From Bacteroidota bacterium (GTDB taxonomy: Bacteria > Bacteroidota > Bacteroidia > Bacteroidales > JAHJDW01): a stretch of DNA of 64,000 bases. Under the pieces are notes generated by a model that saw only the letters and a list, made by a program, of their open reading frames with translations, ran no database searches and had not been told where the DNA came from. The translations under genes and the position numbers were made by a program. Positions 5,201 to 33,685 of the stretch are shown here, piece by piece. The stretch covers positions 4,678 through 68,677 of the forward strand of contig JAZDMK010000006.1 of assembly GCA_043800975.1 (NCBI GenBank), read 5' to 3'. The stretch's first letter is position 1. Every line of letters begins with the position of its first letter.

Positions 5201-8200
5201 ATGATGAGTTACAAGCGAATTAATAACGTGGCAGGATGGGCAGCTTTTGCAGTAGCCCTGATCGTTTACACACTGACGCTAGAACCTACAGCCAGTTGGT
5301 GGGATTGTGGAGAGTTCATATTATCGTCCTATAAATTAGAAGTAGGCCATCCTCCTGGCAATGCATTGTTTATCCTGTTGGGTCGCTTTTTTACACTTTT
5401 TGCAGGCGGTAATATTCAACTTGTTTCTGTTATGGTGAACTTCATGTCGGCGCTGATGAGTGCCTTCACTATATTATTCCTTTTTTGGACCATAACGGCT
5501 TTTGCCAGAAAAATTGTTGGTCAGAAAGAAGAAGAGTTAAATCAAAATTCACTCTGGAAAATTATCGGAAGCGGGCTTGTGGGTGCACTGGCATTCACAT
5601 TCAGCGATTCGTTCTGGTTTTCAGCTGTTGAAGGTGAAGTTTACGCCAGCTCATCATTCTTTACTGCTATCGTGTTCTGGGCGATCCTTAAGTGGGAAAA
5701 CGTTGCAGATGATCCAAAAGCAATACGCTGGCTGATACTGATTGCTTACCTTATGGGTTTGTCAATCAATATTCACTTGCTGAATATCCTTACCATTCCT
5801 GCTATTGCGTTTGTTTATTATTTTAAGAAATACAAACCTACTACGAAAGGTGTTATCTACACTTCGATCATTTCTATGGGGATGGTGCTTATAGTGCAGT
5901 ATGGAATCGTGGGCGGGTTGATTAAATTTGCCAGTAAATTCGACCTTTTCTTTGTCAATAGCATGGGAATGGGATTTGGCTCCGGTGTAATTTTCTTTAC
6001 ATTGCTGGTTGTTGGAATAACAGTGTTCGGAATTTATCGTACGATTAAAAAAGGTGCTGTTCTCTGGAATACTTTCTGGCTTTGTTTTGCATTTATCGTT
6101 ATCGGTTATTCTTCATTTGTCGTTGTTGTTATTCGTGCGCAAGCCAATACACCCATAAACGAAAATGATCCAAGCAATGTGTTTGCATTTCTTTCGTATG
6201 TTAACCGTGAGCAATATGGCGACAGGCCTTTGTTTTATGGTCCAAACTACAATGCTGAAATTATTAAAAGTGAAAAGGGAGCTTCGATATACGCAGTTGG
6301 AAAAGACAAATATGATGAAGTAAGTTATAAACCCGAATACAAATATGATCCGAAGGCATGCACTGTGTTTCCGCGTATGTACAGTACAGAATCGCATCAT
6401 ATAGCAGCTTACAAATCTTGGGCTGGCATAAAAGGTGAGGCTACTCCAACATTTTCGCAAAACCTGAAATACTTTTTCGCATATCAAATGAACCATATGT
6501 ATTTCCGGTATTTTATGTGGAATTTTGCAGGGCGGCAAAACGATATCCAGGGCCATGGAAGCGTATCGGAAGGTAACTGGATCACAGGAATCCCTTTTCT
6601 GGATGGCATACGTAATGGTTCGCAAGATAGTTTATCAGATAGCCAGATGAACAATAAGGCTAGGAACACTTTCTTCATGCTGCCATTTTTACTTGGTATG
6701 ATTGGGATGTTTTTCCAGTTTTCAAGAAAAAATAAAGATGCATGGGCAGTCATGCTGTTCTTCATTATGACGGGTGCAGCTATTGTTGTTTATCTGAATC
6801 AATATCCCTATCAGCCCCGTGAACGTGATTATGCATTTGCCGGATCTTTTTATGGATTTGCAATCTGGATAGGACTTGGCGTAATGTCGCTCGCAGATTT
6901 TTTACAAAAGAAAAAAGAATCTTTTATTACAACACTTGCTGTAATTGGTGGTACAATGATTCTGGTTCCCGGTATCATGGCGGCACAGGGATGGGATGAT
7001 CACGATCGATCAAATAAATATACTTCACGTGATTTTGCTGCAAATTATTTAATGTCGTGTAAGCCTAATGCAATTCTGGTTACGAACGGTGATAATGACA
7101 CATTCCCGCTTTGGTACTGCCAGGAAGTGGAAGGAATTCGTACAGATGTGCGTGTAATAAATATGGAGCTTGCCAGTGGCGACTGGTACATCAAGCAGTT
7201 TGTAAACAGATTGTATGATTCTCCACCGGTTGAATTGACCATTCCGGTTGAAGATTACCGCACAGGAACAAACGATTATGTTCCTATCTATGTTGATGAA
7301 GGCACAGACCCGGTGATGGAGCTGAAAGATGTTTTGAAATTTATTGCAAGCAAGGATCCGGATAAAAAAGTTCGTATGGACGATGGCCGTTCGATGAGTT
7401 TCATTCCCTGCAAGTCGTTCCGCATGACAGTGGATTCAGCAACTGTACTGAAAAATGGAATTGTTCCCAAAGAATTTGCCAATAAAATTCAAAAGGTGAT
7501 GGAATGGAAAACGGGCAGGCAGTACATTTATAAGAACGACCTGGTTATTATGGATATTATTGCCAGCAACTTTGGAAAACGTCCGATTTATTTTGTAGCT
7601 CCCAGCAGTATTAGTCATATTGTGAATGTTGAACCGTATTTCCAACTGGAAGGTTTTGCTTCGCAGATTGTTCCCATGCAACTCGATACAAACAGAAAAG
7701 TGGATAATATCAATACTGAAGCGATGTATGATAATATCATGAACAAATTTAAATGGGGCAATGTAAATAATCCAAACAATTACCTGGATCCTGAAACACG
7801 TCGTATGTGTTATAGTGTTCGTATTGCTTTCGGAAGGCTTTCATCCGCATTGGTTTTAGAGGGCAAAAAGGATAAAGCAATAAAAGTTTGTGACCGTTGC
7901 ATCGAAGTTACTCCAGATGCAGCAGTTCCCTATGATCTTTATCTGTTGCCTGTTGTAGAAAATTATTATGCCTGTAATGCCAATGATAAAGCCAATGCGA
8001 TCATAAAACGCATGGTGGATATCGCAGAAAATGAAATGAATTATTACTTCTCGTTAGGAAAAAAACACTTCACAGATATCCAGGAAGATGCACAACGCAA
8101 TATGGCAGTTATTCAGCGATGCATGGACCTTACTCAAAGATACAAGCAAACAGAACTGAATAAAAATATTACATCACGCTTTAACCGTCTGGCGCAAATG

Positions 8201-8215
8201 TATCAGGCTTCATAA
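5201..8215 (+). CDS. DUF2723-type (TMEM260-like, GT-C fold) membrane glycosyltransferase, paralogue 1
   Basis: 1004 aa; multi-TM N-terminal half with EPTASWWDCGEF..KLEVGHPPG..GRFFTLFAG and NGDNDTFPLWYCQEVEGIRTDVRVIN; helical-repeat C-terminus. Confidence 0.85.
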   Translation: MMSYKRINNVAGWAAFAVALIVYTLTLEPTASWWDCGEFILSSYKLEVGHPPGNALFILLGRFFTLFAGGNIQLVSVMVNFMSALMSAFTILFLFWTITAFARKIVGQKEEELNQNSLWKIIGSGLVGALAFTFSDSFWFSAVEGEVYASSSFFTAIVFWAILKWENVADDPKAIRWLILIAYLMGLSINIHLLNILTIPAIAFVYYFKKYKPTTKGVIYTSIISMGMVLIVQYGIVGGLIKFASKFDLFFVNSMGMGFGSGVIFFTLLVVGITVFGIYRTIKKGAVLWNTFWLCFAFIVIGYSSFVVVVIRAQANTPINENDPSNVFAFLSYVNREQYGDRPLFYGPNYNAEIIKSEKGASIYAVGKDKYDEVSYKPEYKYDPKACTVFPRMYSTESHHIAAYKSWAGIKGEATPTFSQNLKYFFAYQMNHMYFRYFMWNFAGRQNDIQGHGSVSEGNWITGIPFLDGIRNGSQDSLSDSQMNNKARNTFFMLPFLLGMIGMFFQFSRKNKDAWAVMLFFIMTGAAIVVYLNQYPYQPRERDYAFAGSFYGFAIWIGLGVMSLADFLQKKKESFITTLAVIGGTMILVPGIMAAQGWDDHDRSNKYTSRDFAANYLMSCKPNAILVTNGDNDTFPLWYCQEVEGIRTDVRVINMELASGDWYIKQFVNRLYDSPPVELTIPVEDYRTGTNDYVPIYVDEGTDPVMELKDVLKFIASKDPDKKVRMDDGRSMSFIPCKSFRMTVDSATVLKNGIVPKEFANKIQKVMEWKTGRQYIYKNDLVIMDIIASNFGKRPIYFVAPSSISHIVNVEPYFQLEGFASQIVPMQLDTNRKVDNINTEAMYDNIMNKFKWGNVNNPNNYLDPETRRMCYSVRIAFGRLSSALVLEGKKDKAIKVCDRCIEVTPDAAVPYDLYLLPVVENYYACNANDKANAIIKRMVDIAENEMNYYFSLGKKHFTDIQEDAQRNMAVIQRCMDLTQRYKQTELNKNITSRFNRLAQMYQAS

Positions 8216-8238
8216 AAAAAGTTAATTTATTGAAAAAG

Positions 8239-8275
8239 GCAGGCTCGCATTTGTGAGCCTGCCTTTTGTTTTTTA
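8239..8275 (+). terminator. intrinsic terminator between the DUF2723 paralogues
   Basis: GGCAGGCTC (8239-8247) pairs with GAGCCTGCC (8255-8263), followed by TTTTGTTTTTT. Confidence 0.8.
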
Positions 8276-8321
8276 TACAAGTAAAAAGTTTTTGTATTTT
8301 CGTTCTGCGAATTATTTCATT

Positions 8322-11300
8322 ATGAAACAATACAAACTATTAAACAATCTTACCGGATGGGCTGTATTTGCCATTTCCAGTATTGTGTACATCTTAACCT
8401 GTGAGCCTACAGCCAGCTTCTGGGATTGCGGTGAGTATATCTCCTGTGCATATAAACTCGAAGTAGGGCATCCGCCTGGTGCGCCTACCTTTCTCCTGCT
8501 TGGTAGATTCTTTACACTTTTTGCAGGTGACGTTTCCAATGTTGCATTCTCTATTAATGTGATGTCGGCCTTAGCCAGTGGATTTACAATTTTGTTTTTA
8601 TTCTGGACCATTACTGCTCTTGCCAGAAAATTATTTCTTTCAGGAAAAGAATACCCGCTTTCTTCAATTCTTAGTGTGCTAGGCGCTGGTATTGTTGGAG
8701 CTTTGGCGTATACATTCACGGATTCTTTTTGGTTTTCAGCTGTGGAGGGTGAAGTGTATGCAACTTCGGCATTCTTTACTGCTATTGTATTCTGGGCGAT
8801 ACTGAAATGGGAAACCGAATCAGATGATCCGCACTCTGTTCGCTGGTTATTCCTTATTGCTTTGCTGGTAGGCCTTTCCGTTGGTGTTCACTTATTGAAT
8901 CTGCTTACAATTCCGGCCATGGCTTTCATTGTTTATTTTAAAAAATACAAGTTTTCAATAAAAGGCCTGCTGATAACAGGTGGAACATCTTTGTTTATCC
9001 TATGGTTGATTATGAGTGTGATCATTCCACAGGTTGTTAATCTTTTTGCAAAATCAGAATTGATGTTTGTTAACGGAATGGGCCTGGGGTTTAATTCCGG
9101 GTCTATCATTTTTGCCATCGTTCTGATAGGCGCTATAATATTAACATTGCGCTATTCCATCCGGAAGAAGAAAATGATGCTGAATACAATTATGCTTTGT
9201 TTTACTTTTTTATTGTTAGGATACTCCACTTTTCTGGTTGTAATTATTCGCTCTGATGCTGGTACACCCATCAATGAAAACAAACCCAATAATCCGATCA
9301 GTTTACTTTCTTATTTGAATCGTGAGCAATACGGCGACTGGCCTATATCATACGGGCAGTATTATTGTGCCCCGGTCGATCCAAAGAAACCCTATCTGGA
9401 TGGAAATCCTATTTACGAACGTGATTACAAAACGGGAAAATATGTGATCACCGATTCAAAGAAAAGATCAATTCCAAATTTTGATTCACGTTTTTGTACT
9501 TTCTTTCCACGTATGTGGGATTCCAAACCAGAGCACATTAAAGAGTATAAAAAGTGGGGAAAGATAATTGGAGAAACAGTGGCAGGTAGCAGCATTGTAA
9601 AGCCAACTTTTACAGAAAACATGCGTTATTTTTTCCGCTATCAGCTAGGATGGATGTATTGGCGGTATTTTGCCTGGAATTTTATTGGAAGGCAAAACGA
9701 TCTTCAGGGTCATGGAAATAATATGGAAGGAAACTGGGCCAGTGGAATTGCTGCTTTTGATGAAGGAAGGCTTGGCCCCGAAAACTCAGTGCCACCAGCC
9801 TATGCAAATAACCCCGCTACCAATCATTATTATTTTCTTCCTTTTATTTTAGGATTGATTGGAATGATTTTCCATTTTAGAAAAAGATGGAAAGATGGTT
9901 TGGTTGTAGCCTTGCTGTTTCTGCTTACGGGTATTGCCATTGTGATTTATTTGAATCAGTACCCGCTTCAGCCACGCGAGCGTGATTACGCATTCGCAGG
10001 ATCCTTTTACGCCTATGCCATTTGGATTGGATTGGGTGTACTTGCTATTATTAATCTCCTGAAAAAATATCTGGCTGAAAAATGGGCAGCCATTTCTGTT
10101 ACTATTGCATGCTTTATTCTTGTTCCGGGAATACTTGCTTCCCAAAATTGGAATGACCATGATCGTTCAGGACGTTATACTTCTCGCGACTTTGCTTCCA
10201 ACTACCTTAACTCCTGTGCGCCAAATGCCATACTTTTTACGAATGGTGATAATGATACATTCCCGCTTTGGTATGCTCAGGAAGTGGAAGGAATCCGTAC
10301 GGATGTGCGTGTAATCAACCTTAGTTTGCTTAATACTGACTGGTACATTGATCAGATGAAAATGAAACAATACCTTTCAGAACCCTTGCCCATCAAGATG
10401 CAGCACGAGCAATACAGAATGGGAACGCGCGATTATCTGCCTATTATGAAAGATACCGGGGCTGTTTTTTCGGATTTAAAAACAATGATGAATTTTGCAT
10501 TGAACGATGAAAACCGAAGAAATACAAATAATGGTCTGATTAATTATTTCCCTACAACAAAATTCAGTATCCCTGTGGATTCAGCGACTGTAGTGAACAA
10601 CGGTACTGTAAAAGCAAACCAGAGAAACCGAATTGTAAAAAGATTGGAATGGGATTACAATCAAAGTTATGTTCAGAAAAACGCATTGTGCCTGCTCGAT
10701 ATTCTCGCTAATAATAATTGGAAGCGTCCGATTTATTTTTCTATGACAACCGGTGCAGATAGTTATTATGGTTTGGAAAATTACTTCCAGCTGGAAGGTC
10801 TGGCGTATCGTCTTGTGCCAATTACAAAAGTGAACGCAGGAGACGGACAGATAGGAATGATCGATGGTGAAATTCTTTATGAGAATATCATGAAGAAATT
10901 TAAATGGGGCAACATCGAAAAACCCGGCGTGTATATGGATGAAACCAACGCTAACATGGCTATGAATTTCCGCTCATTGTTCGCAAGGCTTGCAGGAGCA
11001 TTGACCCGTGAAGGAAAAACCAAAAAATCACTGGAAGTGTTGGAATTTTGTGAAAAAATTATTCCTGATTCAAAATTTCCTCACAGCTATTTCTCCTTGT
11101 CTCTCTGTAATGCCTACTATCAGGCAGGCGCAGTAAGCAAAGGAAGTGAACTCGCAAAAAAGATTTATACAATTTGTCAGTTAGAGCTGGAATATTTCTT
11201 TGCATTAAAACCATCGTTGCGCGTTATTGCTGATACGGAGATACAAAGAGCGTTGTATGTTACAAAAACGCTCATGGAGATTGCAACCTATGCGAAGCAG

Positions 11301-11369
11301 GAAAAAATTAAAAGTGATACGGAACAACTGTTGAAGAAATATTACGGGCAGTATACACCCGGTGGCTGA
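8322..11369 (+). CDS. DUF2723-type (TMEM260-like, GT-C fold) membrane glycosyltransferase, paralogue 2
   Basis: N-terminus MKQYKLLNNLTGWAVFAISS aligns with paralogue 1 (44/62 identical in the first conserved block); ORF-track start 8253 overlaps the terminator and was trimmed to ATG 8322. Confidence 0.85.
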   Translation: MKQYKLLNNLTGWAVFAISSIVYILTCEPTASFWDCGEYISCAYKLEVGHPPGAPTFLLLGRFFTLFAGDVSNVAFSINVMSALASGFTILFLFWTITALARKLFLSGKEYPLSSILSVLGAGIVGALAYTFTDSFWFSAVEGEVYATSAFFTAIVFWAILKWETESDDPHSVRWLFLIALLVGLSVGVHLLNLLTIPAMAFIVYFKKYKFSIKGLLITGGTSLFILWLIMSVIIPQVVNLFAKSELMFVNGMGLGFNSGSIIFAIVLIGAIILTLRYSIRKKKMMLNTIMLCFTFLLLGYSTFLVVIIRSDAGTPINENKPNNPISLLSYLNREQYGDWPISYGQYYCAPVDPKKPYLDGNPIYERDYKTGKYVITDSKKRSIPNFDSRFCTFFPRMWDSKPEHIKEYKKWGKIIGETVAGSSIVKPTFTENMRYFFRYQLGWMYWRYFAWNFIGRQNDLQGHGNNMEGNWASGIAAFDEGRLGPENSVPPAYANNPATNHYYFLPFILGLIGMIFHFRKRWKDGLVVALLFLLTGIAIVIYLNQYPLQPRERDYAFAGSFYAYAIWIGLGVLAIINLLKKYLAEKWAAISVTIACFILVPGILASQNWNDHDRSGRYTSRDFASNYLNSCAPNAILFTNGDNDTFPLWYAQEVEGIRTDVRVINLSLLNTDWYIDQMKMKQYLSEPLPIKMQHEQYRMGTRDYLPIMKDTGAVFSDLKTMMNFALNDENRRNTNNGLINYFPTTKFSIPVDSATVVNNGTVKANQRNRIVKRLEWDYNQSYVQKNALCLLDILANNNWKRPIYFSMTTGADSYYGLENYFQLEGLAYRLVPITKVNAGDGQIGMIDGEILYENIMKKFKWGNIEKPGVYMDETNANMAMNFRSLFARLAGALTREGKTKKSLEVLEFCEKIIPDSKFPHSYFSLSLCNAYYQAGAVSKGSELAKKIYTICQLELEYFFALKPSLRVIADTEIQRALYVTKTLMEIATYAKQEKIKSDTEQLLKKYYGQYTPGG

Positions 11370-29465: not shown

Positions 29466-29680
29466 TTGGGCGCCCGCCGCAATTCCCCTTCTGGATAGAA
29501 GGGGTGGACTGCGCAGCAGGACGGGGTAGTCGAATCCGTCGCGAACGCATCCAAAGGTTTAGTGAGCGGATTAATCAAAAAACATTTGGATCGAAGATCT
29601 CGTACAGAATGTGCGAGTATCTTCAAATACTCAATTTACGGTCAATCATTCTAAGAAGTATTTGGGCGCCTTAACGGGCT
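29466..29680 (+). repeat. GC-rich palindromic repeat-module cluster, copy 1
   Basis: CCCCTTCTGGATAGAAGGGG hairpin 29485-29504; TGGACTGCGCAGCAGGACGGGGTAGTCGAA 29505-29534; GAATCCGTCGCGAACGCATC module; ATACTCAATTTACGGTCAATCAT module. All recur at 32.3 kb and 33.1 kb. Confidence 0.85.
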
Positions 29681-29704
29681 GCTCCGGGGTCCGCTTCGCT
29701 TCCG

Positions 29705-29833
29705 CCAGCCAGAATTCACCAATGTTTCGCTTCTTTGAATGAGCAGTCATCCTGAGCGGAGTCGAAGGATGACAACTAAGCATAATCCTCTGTAGCGAAA
29801 CATTTTTGTTTGTACATATGTCCCTCTGGCTGG
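29705..29833 (+). repeat. nested inverted repeats
   Basis: CCAGCCAGA (29705-13) / TCTGGCTGG (29825-33); AATGTTTCGCT (29721-31) / AGCGAAACATT (29794-804); inner hairpin GTCATCC-N14-GGATGAC. Confidence 0.7.
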
Positions 29834-29917
29834 GCCTTCGCCCTCCGCATCCCGGGCGCAGATATTAGTTTTTTGCTTCAGTCATTAGTTAAAACGTAAC
29901 TCCTGTTCACAAAATTT

Positions 29918-30487
29918 TCAAACCTTCGAAATAATTAATTTCCAACGCTCTTTTATAGTAGTATCCTTGATGAATTCATAAATAAAATTGCCAATTGGAA
30001 TATGTTCGCCTTTAAATTCAAATTTATAATAACCTTCTGTTTCTTCTACTTTTTTCCCAAATAATAATAAAACATCAAAAACATTAGATCGCTCTGTTTG
30101 TACTACCAAATTGCTGCTTGACAAGTAGGGTTTATTTGGATTGCTATTAAATATTATTTCAGCCCTGCGAAATGTTTGATGATCTTTTTGTATTGGATTC
30201 AGGTCTTTTGAAAAATTAAAAAATTCATAACAAAATTGCACTTCAGAAACCTGCCTATATTTCAGACGTATTAATGGTAATGGTTGATAATTTTCATCAA
30301 CATTTAACCACATAGTAGAGATTTCTAAATTTGAATAACTGTCTATAATATGAAAAAATTGATTTAAAGATTTAAATGTTAAAGGTGGAGTAACTTTCTT
30401 TAACTTTTCAGTTTTTATTTTACCTATATAACTTATGAAAATTAGAGTTAAGATAAGGAGTATTAGTATGACTGGTATATAGTACAT
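29918..30487 (-). CDS. hypothetical single-pass membrane protein (cassette partner)
   Basis: 189 aa; N-terminal TM helix YYIPVILILLILTLIFISYIG; no recognisable motif; about 20% G+C. Confidence 0.6.
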   Translation of the reverse strand: MYYIPVILILLILTLIFISYIGKIKTEKLKKVTPPLTFKSLNQFFHIIDSYSNLEISTMWLNVDENYQPLPLIRLKYRQVSEVQFCYEFFNFSKDLNPIQKDHQTFRRAEIIFNSNPNKPYLSSSNLVVQTERSNVFDVLLLFGKKVEETEGYYKFEFKGEHIPIGNFIYEFIKDTTIKERWKLIISKV

Positions 30488-30522
30488 TATTTTAATTTTT
30501 TCTTCTACCCTTTGTTTTATGC

Positions 30523-31233
30523 TTAAGTGTAATTTTCAATTCTCCAATTATCGATATTTCTCTCCTGAATGTTACAACTAATACCAATAAAAACTATCTT
30601 TTTGTTTTTTATCAGATATTTTTCATAATATTTTTTCTCAATGATTTGTTTAATAGCAACATTAGGATTTGACATTTTAAACTCAAGTATTAGTATTTGA
30701 TTTTCAAGATCAATTACTGAATCAATACGACCAAGATTAGTTTCATCTTCACTGATAATTTCGAACCCTAGTACTTTTAGTAAAATATGGAAATTAGAAT
30801 GAAAAAAAGCTTCATTAACTTTAATATCATAAGAAATGCTTGCAAAAATAGATTTAACATCTCTGAAAAAATCATCAAAATTATTTTCTATTAAATTCTT
30901 TTTCATTTTATCATTCCTATTGTACTCTTTTAATACAGAATTGATTTTGGGAAGTGGTAACCATGAAATATTTCTAATAGCTTGTTTCTCGATCTCTACA
31001 TGTTTATTTAGTGCCACTTCAATAATCTTCTTTTCATTTACGTAATCAATGTCAATCTTTTTTAGAAATTCACCTTTGATTAATATTTGATAGGAATAGG
31101 TATACCATTCATCCATCCCCACATAAACAACGTCTTCAAATGAACCTTTTATTTCAGATTCTTTAATAATCTCAGCAGCCTTATCTTCTTCAACAGATAA
31201 TAAGTAACCAACCAATTGTTCATTAAGATCCAT
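30523..31233 (-). CDS. PD-(D/E)XK nuclease-domain protein (PDDEXK_9-like C-terminal half, unknown N-domain)
   Basis: 236 aa; NEAFFHSNFHILLKVLGF..SEDETNLGRIDSVIDL..ILILEFK..AIKQIIEKKYYEKY..IVFIGIS..ERNI matches the PDDEXK_9 pattern with E/D/ExK positions intact. Confidence 0.7.
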   Translation of the reverse strand: MDLNEQLVGYLLSVEEDKAAEIIKESEIKGSFEDVVYVGMDEWYTYSYQILIKGEFLKKIDIDYVNEKKIIEVALNKHVEIEKQAIRNISWLPLPKINSVLKEYNRNDKMKKNLIENNFDDFFRDVKSIFASISYDIKVNEAFFHSNFHILLKVLGFEIISEDETNLGRIDSVIDLENQILILEFKMSNPNVAIKQIIEKKYYEKYLIKNKKIVFIGISCNIQERNIDNWRIENYT

Positions 31234-31334
31234 TCTTGTTATTTACTCTAGTTCTATTTAAAAGCAGCTAACCTACAGTATTTACAAATTTATACATTAT
31301 TATTAATCTCACCAAGAAAAATGAAATAAGTGCT

Positions 31335-31360
31335 CCCTTTCCATATTCATAGGGAAAGGG
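31335..31360. repeat. CCCTTTCC-N10-GGAAAGGG hairpin (variant of the island hairpin family)
   Basis: Read directly; followed by TCGGGGATAGGG. Confidence 0.6.
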
Positions 31361-31496
31361 TCGGGGATAGGGTAAGTACCGCTAAGCTCCAAAAAAATTA
31401 AGTAAAAATTCTTATGTTTCTGATATACTAAAACAAAAATCTCCTCGTTTTTATTTCATAAAACAACAAATTGTTTAACTATTAAAACCTACTGCC

Positions 31497-32243
31497 ATGA
31501 ACACATTCATTGAAACAGGTCACGCTAAAAACGTAGCAAACTTTGAGGACCTCATCTCGTTCTGCTCCGGTTATGGCGTCGCCTACAACCCTTCCCGCAA
31601 TGCCCTGAAAATACCGGCAATGCAAACCCTGCTTACTTCTTCCCGCACTGCCCTCCAAACGGCAAAGGCTGCAAAAACTGCGTATGACAACGCTACCAAC
31701 AACCGTGAAACTGCATTCCTGGGTTTCCGAAAGCTCGCAACACGTATCATAAACGCCCTCGATTCCACAGAAGCATCAAGGCTTACCGTGAACGATGCAA
31801 AATCAATCAATCGTAAAATTCAGGTTAAGCGAGCAAAGAAAATTGAAGAGGTTGTTCCGGTAACGCCCGAAAACCCTACCGCTTCAGCCGAAATACACCA
31901 CATCTCTGTATCGCAGCAAAGCTACGATTCCCAAATCGATCATCTCGCAAAGTTGGTTGTAATACTCACTGCAGAACCCTTGTACAATCCCAACGAAGCC
32001 GATCTGAAACTGACTGCGCTGAACACATACCTCACAAACTTGCGCACGCTGAACACCGCTGTAATCAATACGGCCACTCCTTTCAGCAATGCAATCATCT
32101 CCCGCGATACCCTGCTGTATATGTCCGAAACGGGTCTGGTTGATATTGCTAAAGCAGTTAAAAAATATGTAAAGTCAGTATTTTTCGCAACCAGTCCCCA
32201 ATACAAACAAATCAGCAAAATCCAGTTCCGCCACGTAAAATAA
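31497..32243 (+). CDS. hypothetical helical protein with internal duplication
   Basis: 248 aa; residues 30-74 and 163-207 align with 16/45 identities (YNP..LK..A..T.LT..RT..); GC-rich; followed by a terminator. Confidence 0.65.
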   Translation: MNTFIETGHAKNVANFEDLISFCSGYGVAYNPSRNALKIPAMQTLLTSSRTALQTAKAAKTAYDNATNNRETAFLGFRKLATRIINALDSTEASRLTVNDAKSINRKIQVKRAKKIEEVVPVTPENPTASAEIHHISVSQQSYDSQIDHLAKLVVILTAEPLYNPNEADLKLTALNTYLTNLRTLNTAVINTATPFSNAIISRDTLLYMSETGLVDIAKAVKKYVKSVFFATSPQYKQISKIQFRHVK

Positions 32244-32280: not shown

Positions 32281-32315
32281 CCCTGTATGCCGCAACATAC
32301 AGGGATTTCCTTTTA
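32281..32315 (+). terminator. intrinsic terminator
   Basis: CCCTGTATG-CCGCAA-CATACAGGG, then ATTTCCTTTT. Confidence 0.65.
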
Positions 32316-32318
32316 ATT

Positions 32319-32547
32319 CCCCTTCTGGATAGAAGGGGTGGACTGCGTAGCAGGACGGGGTAGTCGAAATACTCAATTTACGGTCAATCATCAAAAGAAC
32401 TTTTAACGGGTGGACTGCGTAGCAGGACGGGGTAGTCGAAATACTCAATATACGGACAATCATCAAAAGAAGCATTAACAGATGGACTCGAACTGAGCAG
32501 TTGAATCCGTCGCGAACGCATCAAAAGAATTAGTGATAGGTTTATTG
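32319..32547 (+). repeat. repeat-module cluster copy 2, including a 72-bp tandem duplication
   Basis: Hairpin CCCCTTCTGGATAGAAGGGG 32319-32338; near-identical 72-bp units start at 32339 and 32411; a diverged third unit from 32483 carries the GAATCCGTCGCGAACGCATC module. Confidence 0.85.
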
Positions 32548-32554
32548 AAATACA

Positions 32555-32584: not shown

Positions 32585-33094
32585 ATGAAGTATTATAGCA
32601 TTTCTACAAAGGATAGTGCAATAGAAGCTGAAACTTTCTTCATTCACTCAACAATTCTCTATAAAAATTATACGCCTGCAATACCCTTTAATCCTGAGTT
32701 AAAAGAGCGTGCAAAAGAACTTCGTAAAGCAGGAAATTTAGCTGAGGTTATTTTCTGGAAGCAGGTTCATAGAAAAAATTTCTGGGGAATAGACTTTGAT
32801 CGTCAAAAGGTGATAGGTAATTATATTGTTGATTTTTTTGTTAAAAGTTTAAGCCTTGTAATTGAGATTGACGGACGCAGTCATAATCAAAAAGAAGTAC
32901 AAGACAGGATCAGGCAGGATTATCTGGAATCAATAGGGTTATATGTATACAGAATTAAAGATGCCGACATACGAAATGATTTGAATTCAGTGATTGAAGA
33001 ATTGGAGCGATTTATACTTCATCGTTATGCAACACCCCGCCCTATCGGGCACCCCTCTGCCAGAGGGGATTTTAAAAATTCCCCTTCTGGATAG
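32585..33094 (+). CDS. DUF559 (Vsr-like) endonuclease-domain protein
   Basis: ..AEVIFWKQV....FDRQKVIGNYIVDFF....VIEIDGRSH......D..R...L...G..V.R; C-terminal tail HPSARGDFKNSPSG is encoded by palindromic repeats. Confidence 0.8.
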   Translation: MKYYSISTKDSAIEAETFFIHSTILYKNYTPAIPFNPELKERAKELRKAGNLAEVIFWKQVHRKNFWGIDFDRQKVIGNYIVDFFVKSLSLVIEIDGRSHNQKEVQDRIRQDYLESIGLYVYRIKDADIRNDLNSVIEELERFILHRYATPRPIGHPSARGDFKNSPSG

Positions 33095-33297
33095 AAGGGG
33101 TACTCCGCTTGCGGAGGGGGGTAGTCGAAATACTGGTTTACAAGCAATCAACCAAAGAAGTTTATAGGCACCTGCCGCAATTCCCCTTCGAGATCGAAGG
33201 GGTGGCACGAAGTGACGGGGTAGTTGAAAATACTAAATTTACAGCCATTCATCCAATGACGCTTTAACGTGTGGACTGCGCAGCAGGACGGGGTTAT
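33052..33297 (+). repeat. repeat-module cluster copy 3
   Basis: CCCCTCTG-C-CAGAGGGG 33052-68; CCCCTTCTGGATAGAAGGGG 33081-100; CTCCGC-TT-GCGGAG 33103-16; CCCCTTCGAGATCGAAGGGG 33183-202; TGGACTGCGCAGCAGGACGGGG 33271-92. Confidence 0.85.
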
Positions 33298-33347
33298 TAG
33301 TCTTTATTGAGAAAGGACTTTAGTCCTGATAGTGAAAAATGAACTCC

Positions 33348-33685
33348 AAAAGGAATTCTACCACCTTCAAAAAGAAAACTACCACCTGTAAAAAGAATTC
33401 TCCTTCCTGAAAAAAGAATAAGAGCACCTTCAAAAAGAAAAAGAGAAACGCAAAAAAGAATTATTCAACCTGTAAAAAGAAAACCCGCATCTGCAAAAAG
33501 AATTCTCCCACCTGTAAAAAGAAATCTTGCACCTGCAAATTGATTTTTTTTCTGATTCTTCAGGAAAACTCCTTCCTGCATAAAGAAATCCCGAACCTGT
33601 AAAAAGAATTCTTCTACCTGCAAAAAGAATTATTCCGCCTGTAAAAAGAATTCTTGCACCTGTAGCAAAAATATCTGTGTCTAAT
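33348..33685 (+). repeat. array of about 16 direct repeats with an exact 21-bp period
   Basis: A-tract starts at 33348, 33369, 33390, 33411, 33432, 33453, 33474, 33495, 33516, 33537, (33559), 33580, 33601, 33622, 33643, 33664; consensus AAAAAGAATTCTnnCACCTGY; no ORF of 60 aa or more in the track. Confidence 0.9.

Follow-up and report, generated by a model that had tools for sequence, protein, structure and literature searches.

A stand-alone PDDEXK_9-family nuclease and a membrane-anchored orphan in an AT-rich islet of a Bacteroidota genome

Do two small neighbouring genes in an AT-rich islet of a Bacteroidota chromosome form a two-gene defence system, or does the predicted nuclease that one of them encodes stand alone? 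The genes lie in a 64-kb stretch of contig JAZDMK010000006.1 (hereafter, the window, meaning the whole stretch analysed) and are two co-directional open reading frames (ORFs), A and B, separated by 35 nucleotides (nt). An earlier reading made from the DNA letters and ORF list (the sequence-only reading) had given their coordinates exactly and had proposed them as a nuclease with a membrane partner. Our analyses identify A as a self-contained, horizontally mobile, predicted PD-(D/E)XK endonuclease of the PDDEXK_9 (DUF1703) family. The explanation that we favour, and hold to be moderately probable, is that A is a single-gene mobile conflict or defence nuclease with a small N-terminal domain (N-domain) in place of an ATPase, and that B is a co-acquired, lineage-restricted passenger. 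The features on which the argument turns, with lengths in amino acids (aa) and model confidence as predicted local distance difference test (pLDDT) scores, are these:

30523-31233, minus strand: ORF A, a stand-alone PDDEXK_9-family PD-(D/E)XK nuclease of 236 aa, identified from PF08011, homologues and an AlphaFold2 (AF2) model
30949-31233, minus strand: A residues 1-95, acidic alpha/beta N-domain (helix-helix-strand-strand-helix-strand; pLDDT 86-96)
30817-30948, minus strand: A residues 96-139, three-helix linker (helices 96-104, 107-115 and 119-133)
30523-30816, minus strand: A residues 140-236 plus stop codon, PD-(D/E)XK core with motifs I-IV
29918-30487, minus strand: ORF B, a membrane-anchored orphan protein of 189 aa with one homologue and no family
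30422-30478, minus strand: B residues 4-22, transmembrane (TM) helix (Kyte-Doolittle mean 2.77 over 19 residues)
29880-31490, no strand assigned: AT-rich block, 26.7% guanine plus cytosine (G+C), with a G+C at third codon positions (GC3) of 0.20-0.21

The nuclease encoded by ORF A and its architecture

The call of a PDDEXK_9 domain in A held on profile search: PF08011 matched residues 140-230 at 59.7 bits (gathering cut-off 25.5; E 3.1e-16), spanning profile positions 2-105 of 105. DUF1703 proteins follow a four-motif scheme, with a Glu in the first core helix, an Asp, an E-x-K and a Gln in the second helix (PMC1913061). In A, we found motif I at E141, motif II at D171, motif III at E184-F-K186 and motif IV at Q196. 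The E, D and E-x-K positions that had been singled out earlier are invariant in 30 homologues, and a check on catalytic-residue conservation found all four motifs to be invariant across the 30 homologues and five architectures. E162, E164 and G168-R169-I170 are likewise invariant in the A family. These results show that A keeps an intact, predicted PD-(D/E)XK active site. The homology search recovered about 30 full-length relatives (236-241 aa, 51-65% identity), all derived from metagenomes or metagenome-assembled genomes (MAGs), and their alignment with A is conserved from end to end.

The AF2 model of A (mean pLDDT 87) has three parts, namely the N-domain, the linker helices and the nuclease core. 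The core consists of helix 141-154, strands at ~159-186, helix 190-209 and strands 212-221 and 226-234, with pLDDT mostly above 80. No match at E <= 0.001 was obtained when the model was compared with Protein Data Bank (PDB) and viral structure libraries using Foldseek; the weak resemblances of the core were consistent with one another, being to Cas4 SSO0001, ACE1 and RecB-like phage nucleases. The likeness to Cas4 and to the Argonaute-associated ACE1 (4ic1 and 9iab/9iac, Foldseek E 0.03-0.1; Cas4_II, E 0.01) is below significance throughout and, unlike the settings of those nucleases, the window has no CRISPR or prokaryotic Argonaute (pAgo) genes. At the sequence level, A was unmatched in NCBIfam and had nothing significant in PADLOC or PHROGs.

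Canonical DUF1703 proteins join an AAA-ATPase_like module (PF09820) to PDDEXK_9 (PF08011) (Knizewski et al. 2007, PMC1913061). In these proteins a "small alpha-helical region" connects the N-module to the nuclease (PMC1913061), and the A linker corresponds to this region. As a canonical reference we took a Fulvitalea plasmid protein of 519 aa, with PF09820 at 4-199 and PF08011 at 421-512. Residues 103-230 of A aligned with 383-512 of this protein (32% identity over 130 aa, E 2e-25), and the A linker helices (96-133) are homologous to its residues 383-420. Alignments of A with canonical and variant PDDEXK_9 proteins begin at residue 103-110, and tblastn matches in plasmids and phages begin at residue ~100-117; therefore, the common unit is the small alpha-helical region together with the nuclease. 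A thus shares with canonical DUF1703 a homologous linker and a nuclease module with identical motifs I-IV, and differs from it in size (236 aa vs ~520 aa) and at the N-terminus, where the comparison shows that a ~95-aa acidic alpha/beta domain replaces the ~380-aa AAA+ part.

This replacement had been noticed from the sequence, and it was borne out in that PF09820 was unmatched in A even at E up to 10. The region preceding the nuclease had been described as an acidic domain of ~110 aa that could not be placed. Its acidity and its lack of placement were upheld, but its length is ~95-102 aa, and residues ~103-139 form the helical linker already common to canonical family members. The N-domain has a pI of 4.57 in A and of 4.3-5.0 across the family, in which it is conserved over its full length. 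Searches against Pfam (E up to 10) and PDB sequences returned chance-level matches only, for example to dynein light chain (E 0.18). Its fold resembles 3fov, the Era KH domain and OsmC/Ohr weakly (Foldseek E 0.009-0.1), and we take the KH-like or OsmC-like appearance of the model as a weak lead only. A profile search with the N-domain (E <= 0.01) missed even its ~30 source proteins and is therefore uninformative on other architectures. We also considered whether the N-domain might be a degraded AAA module, an outcome raised in the sequence-only reading, and rejected this: residues 1-382 of the canonical protein share nothing with A1-102, and the N-domain is folded, conserved and unalignable with the AAA part.

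The same C-terminal ~130-aa module occurs in other short proteins (P and L numbers are our labels for proteins and loci), fused to a Response_reg (receiver, REC) domain in P0036, to a ~140-aa helical domain in P0032-35, P0037, L012 and L013, and to a ~190-aa domain in the Flavobacterium protein of L011. The module of the REC-PDDEXK_9 protein P0036, of the 271-295-aa family (P0032-35, P0037, L012 and L013) and of the 315-aa Flavobacterium protein (L011) is 36-50% identical to that of A, whereas the N-domains of these variants are unrelated to A's. All of them come from Bacteroidota-type genomes or metagenomes. The fusion of one nuclease module to ATPase, receiver or other small domains suggests a general design in which a swappable switch is mounted on a fixed nuclease effector.

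Shedu (SduA) is a single-gene defence nuclease with a C-terminal PD-(D/E)XK domain, preceded by a variable N-terminal domain with a proposed regulatory or sensing role. A resembles it by analogy only, as a single polypeptide with the same overall layout, but belongs to a different family, since PF14082 SduA_C and the PADLOC Shedu models were unmatched. PDDEXK_9/DUF1703 is a large family whose nuclease prediction dates from 2007 and for which no experimentally established function is known; DUF1703 proteins are expanded in Cardinium, where they have been called putative secreted nucleases of undetermined role (PMC6387759). A is a new architectural variant within this known but experimentally uncharacterized nuclease family, and it is reasonable to see in it a candidate for single-gene defence. 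With an intact predicted active site and a small folded N-domain instead of an ATPase, it is also a convenient minimal member for biochemistry, and it can be used to test the family as a defence effector because its relatives turn up repeatedly in integron cassettes and next to genes for pAgo, Shedu and PDC-S31, as described below.

The genomic company of A-family genes

We compared the window with 13 further, independent loci, each with an A-family gene or a variant of one (L001, L002/3, L004-6, L007, L008, L009, L010, L011, L034, L035/36, L037, L038 and L040). In two of them, A homologues (P0016 and P0017) are held in attC cassette arrays, with 15 sites in L001 and 3 in L040. Sites were defined as RYYYAAC ... 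GTTRRRY with a paired bottom-strand hairpin, with L001 serving as the positive control and with R''/R' ending in a G-T pair. The attC-type sites found are 61-88 nt long and have pairing GCCCAAC ... GTTGGGT/C boxes, co-varying inner stems and a variable loop. No attC-like site was detected in the 64-kb window or in loci other than L001 and L040, and the window's A, considered as an integron gene cassette, was rejected as one for want of attC sites. Integron cassettes are reported to be rich in small defence genes (BRiCs), of which about one third encode TM helices and which have homologues outside integrons that are without attC sites (bioRxiv 10.1101/2024.07.02.601719). The A family is like BRiCs in that two of its members are cassette cargo in attC arrays; the window's A is unlike them in having no attC site, and a PDDEXK_9 cassette is not mentioned in that work (bioRxiv 10.1101/2024.07.02.601719).

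The two arrays (L001:500-12400, ENA ERZ26165376 ctg355693, from a 5.6-Mb genome; L040:800-2620) are made up of co-directional small ORFs and look like a chromosomal integron or a cluster of attC sites lacking an integron integrase (CALIN). An nSTAND3/NACHT gene stands at the upstream edge of the L001 array, 55-nt tandem repeats lie between its attC sites and ORFs, and one of its cassettes is duplicated (2194-2493 = 6830-7129, 98%).

Elsewhere, A-family genes are found near recombinases and defence-type genes. A tyrosine-recombinase-like gene lies 1-3 genes away in L002, L004 and L009. In L008, the A-family gene adjoins a pAgo gene (PADLOC E 4e-302), an adjacency seen in 1 of 14 loci. PDC-S31, which PADLOC lists as a candidate single-gene defence system, adjoins the A-family gene in L034 (5e-94) and in L035 (2e-23), and a PIN_12 protein gene does so in L037. 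Directly downstream of the A-family copy in L010 (8001-10083, Spirosoma endophyticum DSM 26130, NZ_FOLQ01000001.1) is a Shedu SduA_C gene (422 aa, E 5e-21). This A copy seems pseudogenised, with tblastn coverage of residues 32-236 and a remaining ORF of 127 aa. Defence-type immediate neighbours (pAgo, Shedu, PDC-S31 twice and PIN_12) were thus present in 5 of the 13 other loci, a raw count taken without a background rate. In most loci the DNA around the A-family gene is richer in G+C than the gene itself, L008, L011 and L013 being uniformly AT-rich, and the family was not found on IMG/VR viral contigs.

Several of these loci have further features of note. L008 (5684-9160) is a compact low-GC defence island, in which the A-family gene lies 180 nt upstream of the 664-aa pAgo, with an overlapping 200-aa ORF after pAgo and a DUF4238 gene upstream; the weak Foldseek similarity of A to ACE1 may be coincidental. 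The PDC-S31 genes are at L034:97-930, co-directional with and 101 nt upstream of the A-family gene, and at L035:4110-4865, and the two loci are unrelated. In L010, the A copy and the Shedu gene are flanked by an efflux pump operon on one side and by housekeeping genes on the other.

Of the conflict or defence role and the two-gene system that had been proposed together, the former is plausible for the nuclease, whose homologues lie beside defence genes and integrases and inside cassette arrays, and the latter was not supported. On the reading that we favour, A would be a metal-dependent DNA nuclease, as predicted, that is gated or targeted by its N-domain and that, as an effector in conflict or defence, probably needs no partner to act against invading DNA. 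A and B would have arrived together from a low-GC donor, and B would be a passenger, or an accessory specific to its lineage at most.

The mobility of the family could also be read differently. A might be a selfish or mobility-associated nuclease, of the Rpn/YhgA or homing type, whose island location simply reflects its movement, which we regard as unlikely. Low G+C, a patchy distribution and proximity to integrases, IS66 and attC arrays are all compatible with this, but in these settings mobility is supplied by the attC cassettes and integrase islands, with A as passive cargo, and neither terminal inverted repeats nor target duplications mark the A gene itself. Although PDDEXK_9 has been placed among new PD-(D/E)XK families that include YhgA-like putative transposases (PMC1913061), and although A in the window lies in a hotspot rich in repeats that also holds the gene for a DUF559 (Vsr-like) endonuclease, we found no multi-copy expansion of A within any locus or the window, and the failure to find it on viral contigs also speaks against a selfish element.

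Composition bears on how the islet was acquired. A has 26.2% G+C and a GC3 of 0.21 and B has 26.7% and 0.20, as against 46-49% and 0.50-0.59 in the flanking genes and 39.6% G+C in the window as a whole. Our recount agreed with the hand counts of G+C made earlier (13/60 at 30301-30360 and 11/60 at 30601-30660). The regional estimates had to be revised: the block, put at ~20%, measured 26.7% (lowest 300-nt windows 22-25%), and its neighbours, put at ~57%, measured 46-49% (highest 300-nt window 54.7%). The AT-rich block at 29880-31490 is presumed to be horizontally acquired, and we infer its insertion boundaries from composition. An empty-site test anchored on the flanking receptor-like gene returned only relatives of <=50% identity with no shared synteny.

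Such a foreign composition (GC3 0.20 vs 0.46-0.59) within a housekeeping neighbourhood might mean that the cassette is inert, recently acquired and non-adaptive cargo, with B an inconsequential fast-evolving orphan and A possibly decaying, much as the Spirosoma copy appears to have done. We find this quite unlikely. Both ORFs are intact despite stop-dense DNA of 26% G+C; at that composition, the calculated stop-codon frequency is ~0.086 per codon, so that the chance of a 236-codon open run is ~6e-10. Because stop codons are so dense in AT-rich DNA of this kind, the reading frames of A and B are open far beyond chance. Moreover, the catalytic and structural residues of A are all intact and, orphan though it is, B keeps long identical stretches in its predicted cytoplasmic domain with its single relative, P0039, at 48% overall identity, which points to selection on the protein.

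The A-B pair and membrane ORFs beside A-family genes

B had been described as having one N-terminal TM helix and no recognisable motif, and both points were confirmed: the helix spans residues 4-22 (helix 3-27 in the AF2 model, at pLDDT ~80), and B was unmatched in Pfam, NCBIfam, PADLOC and PHROGs. Because KIKTEKLKK follows the helix, the positive-inside rule predicts that the ~165-aa C-terminal domain is cytoplasmic. The AF2 model of B, built from two sequences, is unreliable (pLDDT 50). Its single relative is P0039 (MFH0895253.1, locus tag V2A54_12535, from a Bacteroidota MAG), which is 44-48% identical and has three hydrophobic segments followed by a domain equivalent to B's. A word-indexed search gave no other relative, a full HMMER search with the two-sequence profile found no further member in 1.84 billion representative proteins, and none was found in genome, metagenome, viral or plasmid collections. 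B therefore appears to be a lineage-restricted orphan.

Two further features bear on the transcription of the pair:

30488-30522, minus strand: A-B spacer of 35 nt, in which promoter-like or terminator-like signals were not found
31285-31292, minus strand: TAAATTTG, a match to the -7 consensus TAnnTTTG, 52-59 nt upstream of the ATG of A

TAnnTTTG is the Bacteroidota -7 promoter consensus. TAAATTTG is a candidate promoter of the A-B unit, although such matches weigh little in AT-rich DNA. The motif does not occur within the spacer, and no intrinsic terminator was found across 29.4-31.6 kb. Because the spacer has no promoter-like or terminator-like signal, A and B are probably co-transcribed.

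This arrangement is what would be expected if A and B were an obligate two-gene defence or abortive-infection system, with a nuclease sensor or effector and a membrane effector: the genes are co-directional, 35 nt apart, equally anomalous in G+C and GC3, and separated by no promoter or terminator signal. However, using tblastn and blastp we found B homologues in 0 of the 13 other A-family loci. The two genes were never found together in any locus compared, the locus of MFH0895253.1 not being among them, and an all-against-all comparison of neighbours within 3 kb detected no conserved partner of A, only integrases and DUF5677 recurring in a few loci. The nuclease and membrane-partner system put forward from the sequence was not supported by this comparison. 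The B family totals two members and, more indirectly, the window's own A was the only NCBI-source A-family protein in the homology search, though P0039 is an NCBI protein.

Membrane proteins of other kinds do occur next to A-family genes. In L001, the A homologue and a 227-aa protein with two TM helices lie within one attC-bounded cassette, and small membrane ORFs also adjoin the A-family gene in L004 (239 aa), L009 (183 aa, divergent), L011 (188 aa) and L040 (an uncalled 48-aa ORF), so that, with the window's B, six loci have an adjacent small ORF with an N-terminal hydrophobic helix. These observations would favour a two-gene system, but the ORFs are unrelated, vary in side, strand and size (48-239 aa), and are missing from seven loci. 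The L001 and L040 A genes are 83% identical in nucleotide sequence, yet this similarity gives out ~80 nt upstream, and L040 lacks the two-TM ORF that precedes A in L001. Against a background rate of 6-12% for such genes, 5 of 13 loci (a count that predates the retrieval of L040) gives P 0.006-0.15, a marginal enrichment under a criterion chosen after seeing the data and in AT-rich DNA, which inflates counts of hydrophobic ORFs. We therefore consider an obligate A-B system distinctly improbable. The A-B pairing is a one-off juxtaposition and is not countable as a new defence pair; the G+C and GC3 that B shares with A, the signal-free 35-nt spacer and the single homologue of B make it a likely passenger.

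Several observations weigh against the reading of A as a lone defence nuclease with B as its passenger. The close spacing and common composition of A and B also fit a functional pair, and the 13 compared loci leave out that of B's sole homologue, MFH0895253.1. Mutually unrelated small membrane ORFs adjoin the A-family gene in five other loci (L001, L004, L009, L011 and L040). A fits none of the PADLOC-DB v2.0 models, the top one being Cas4_II at E 0.01. The islet lies among housekeeping genes, with no integrase, transposase, attC site or defence gene beyond DUF559 in the window; such low-GC islets had been called typical of anti-phage modules, but the window is not a defence island and consists of ordinary housekeeping chromosome, to which DUF559 is the sole exception. 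Finally, the literature searched reports neither nuclease activity nor a phage phenotype for any PDDEXK_9 protein, so that the case for a defence role is one of association.

The unrelated membrane ORFs in five other loci leave room for a loosely specified membrane partner. A-family nucleases might work with interchangeable, non-homologous membrane-anchored partners that are defined by topology and not by homology, an idea that we consider very doubtful; if true, it would amount to a defence architecture that combines a fixed cytoplasmic nuclease with rapidly replaced membrane proteins, perhaps as a sensing or localising component.

Repeats and genes around the islet

The islet had been described as bracketed by GC-rich palindromic repeats, and we found such palindromic or repetitive extragenic palindromic (REP)-like elements on both sides:

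29671-29866, no strand assigned: nested GC-rich palindrome of ~200 nt directly downstream of B (fold -39.3 kcal/mol, z -2.6)
29469-29662, plus strand: composite REP-like repeat, left copy
32303-32550, plus strand: composite REP-like repeat, right copies (72-nt unit, twice)

The palindrome is single-copy within the window; we considered it as an attC site and rejected it, the attC scan being negative. The composite repeat consists of the hairpin CCCCTTCTGGATAGAAGGGG, GGACTGCGCAGCAGGACGGGGTAGTCGAA and an AT-rich tail. A further copy is present at 33065-33300, and members of the family occur nowhere in the 64 kb but in this ~4-kb stretch. The left and right copies enclose a 2.8-kb segment that contains B, A and a 248-aa ORF. 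In three cases, those of the receptor-like gene, the 248-aa ORF and the DUF559 gene, a stop codon is followed by repeat copies. No Rfam match was obtained across 29-34 kb.

The DUF559 gene (32585-33094) matches PF04480 at E 1.5e-26. It had been placed 1.3 kb from A, in agreement with the 1352 nt that we measured to its ORF start, and the last ~20 codons of its ORF come from one REP-like copy. The 248-aa ORF (31497-32243, plus strand) is divergent from A, has a host-like G+C of 46% and was unmatched in Pfam, NCBIfam, PADLOC and PHROGs.

Neighbours in the window include BamA, OmpH, UppS, a radical SAM enzyme, glycosyltransferases and an M49 peptidase, together with a Por_Secre_tail protein, a C25 peptidase and the outer-membrane receptor-like protein, which has a CarboxypepD_reg domain. 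Upstream of the M49 peptidase gene, the intergenic DNA at 33348-33664 is made up of a degenerate tandem repeat with a 21-nt unit (15 copies; consensus AAAAAGAATTCTTCCACCTGT; 64% matches). Farther away, positions 5201-11369 (plus strand) encode two tandem paralogues of ~1000 aa, each with an N-terminal TMEM260-like protein O-mannosyltransferase domain (E ~1e-74).

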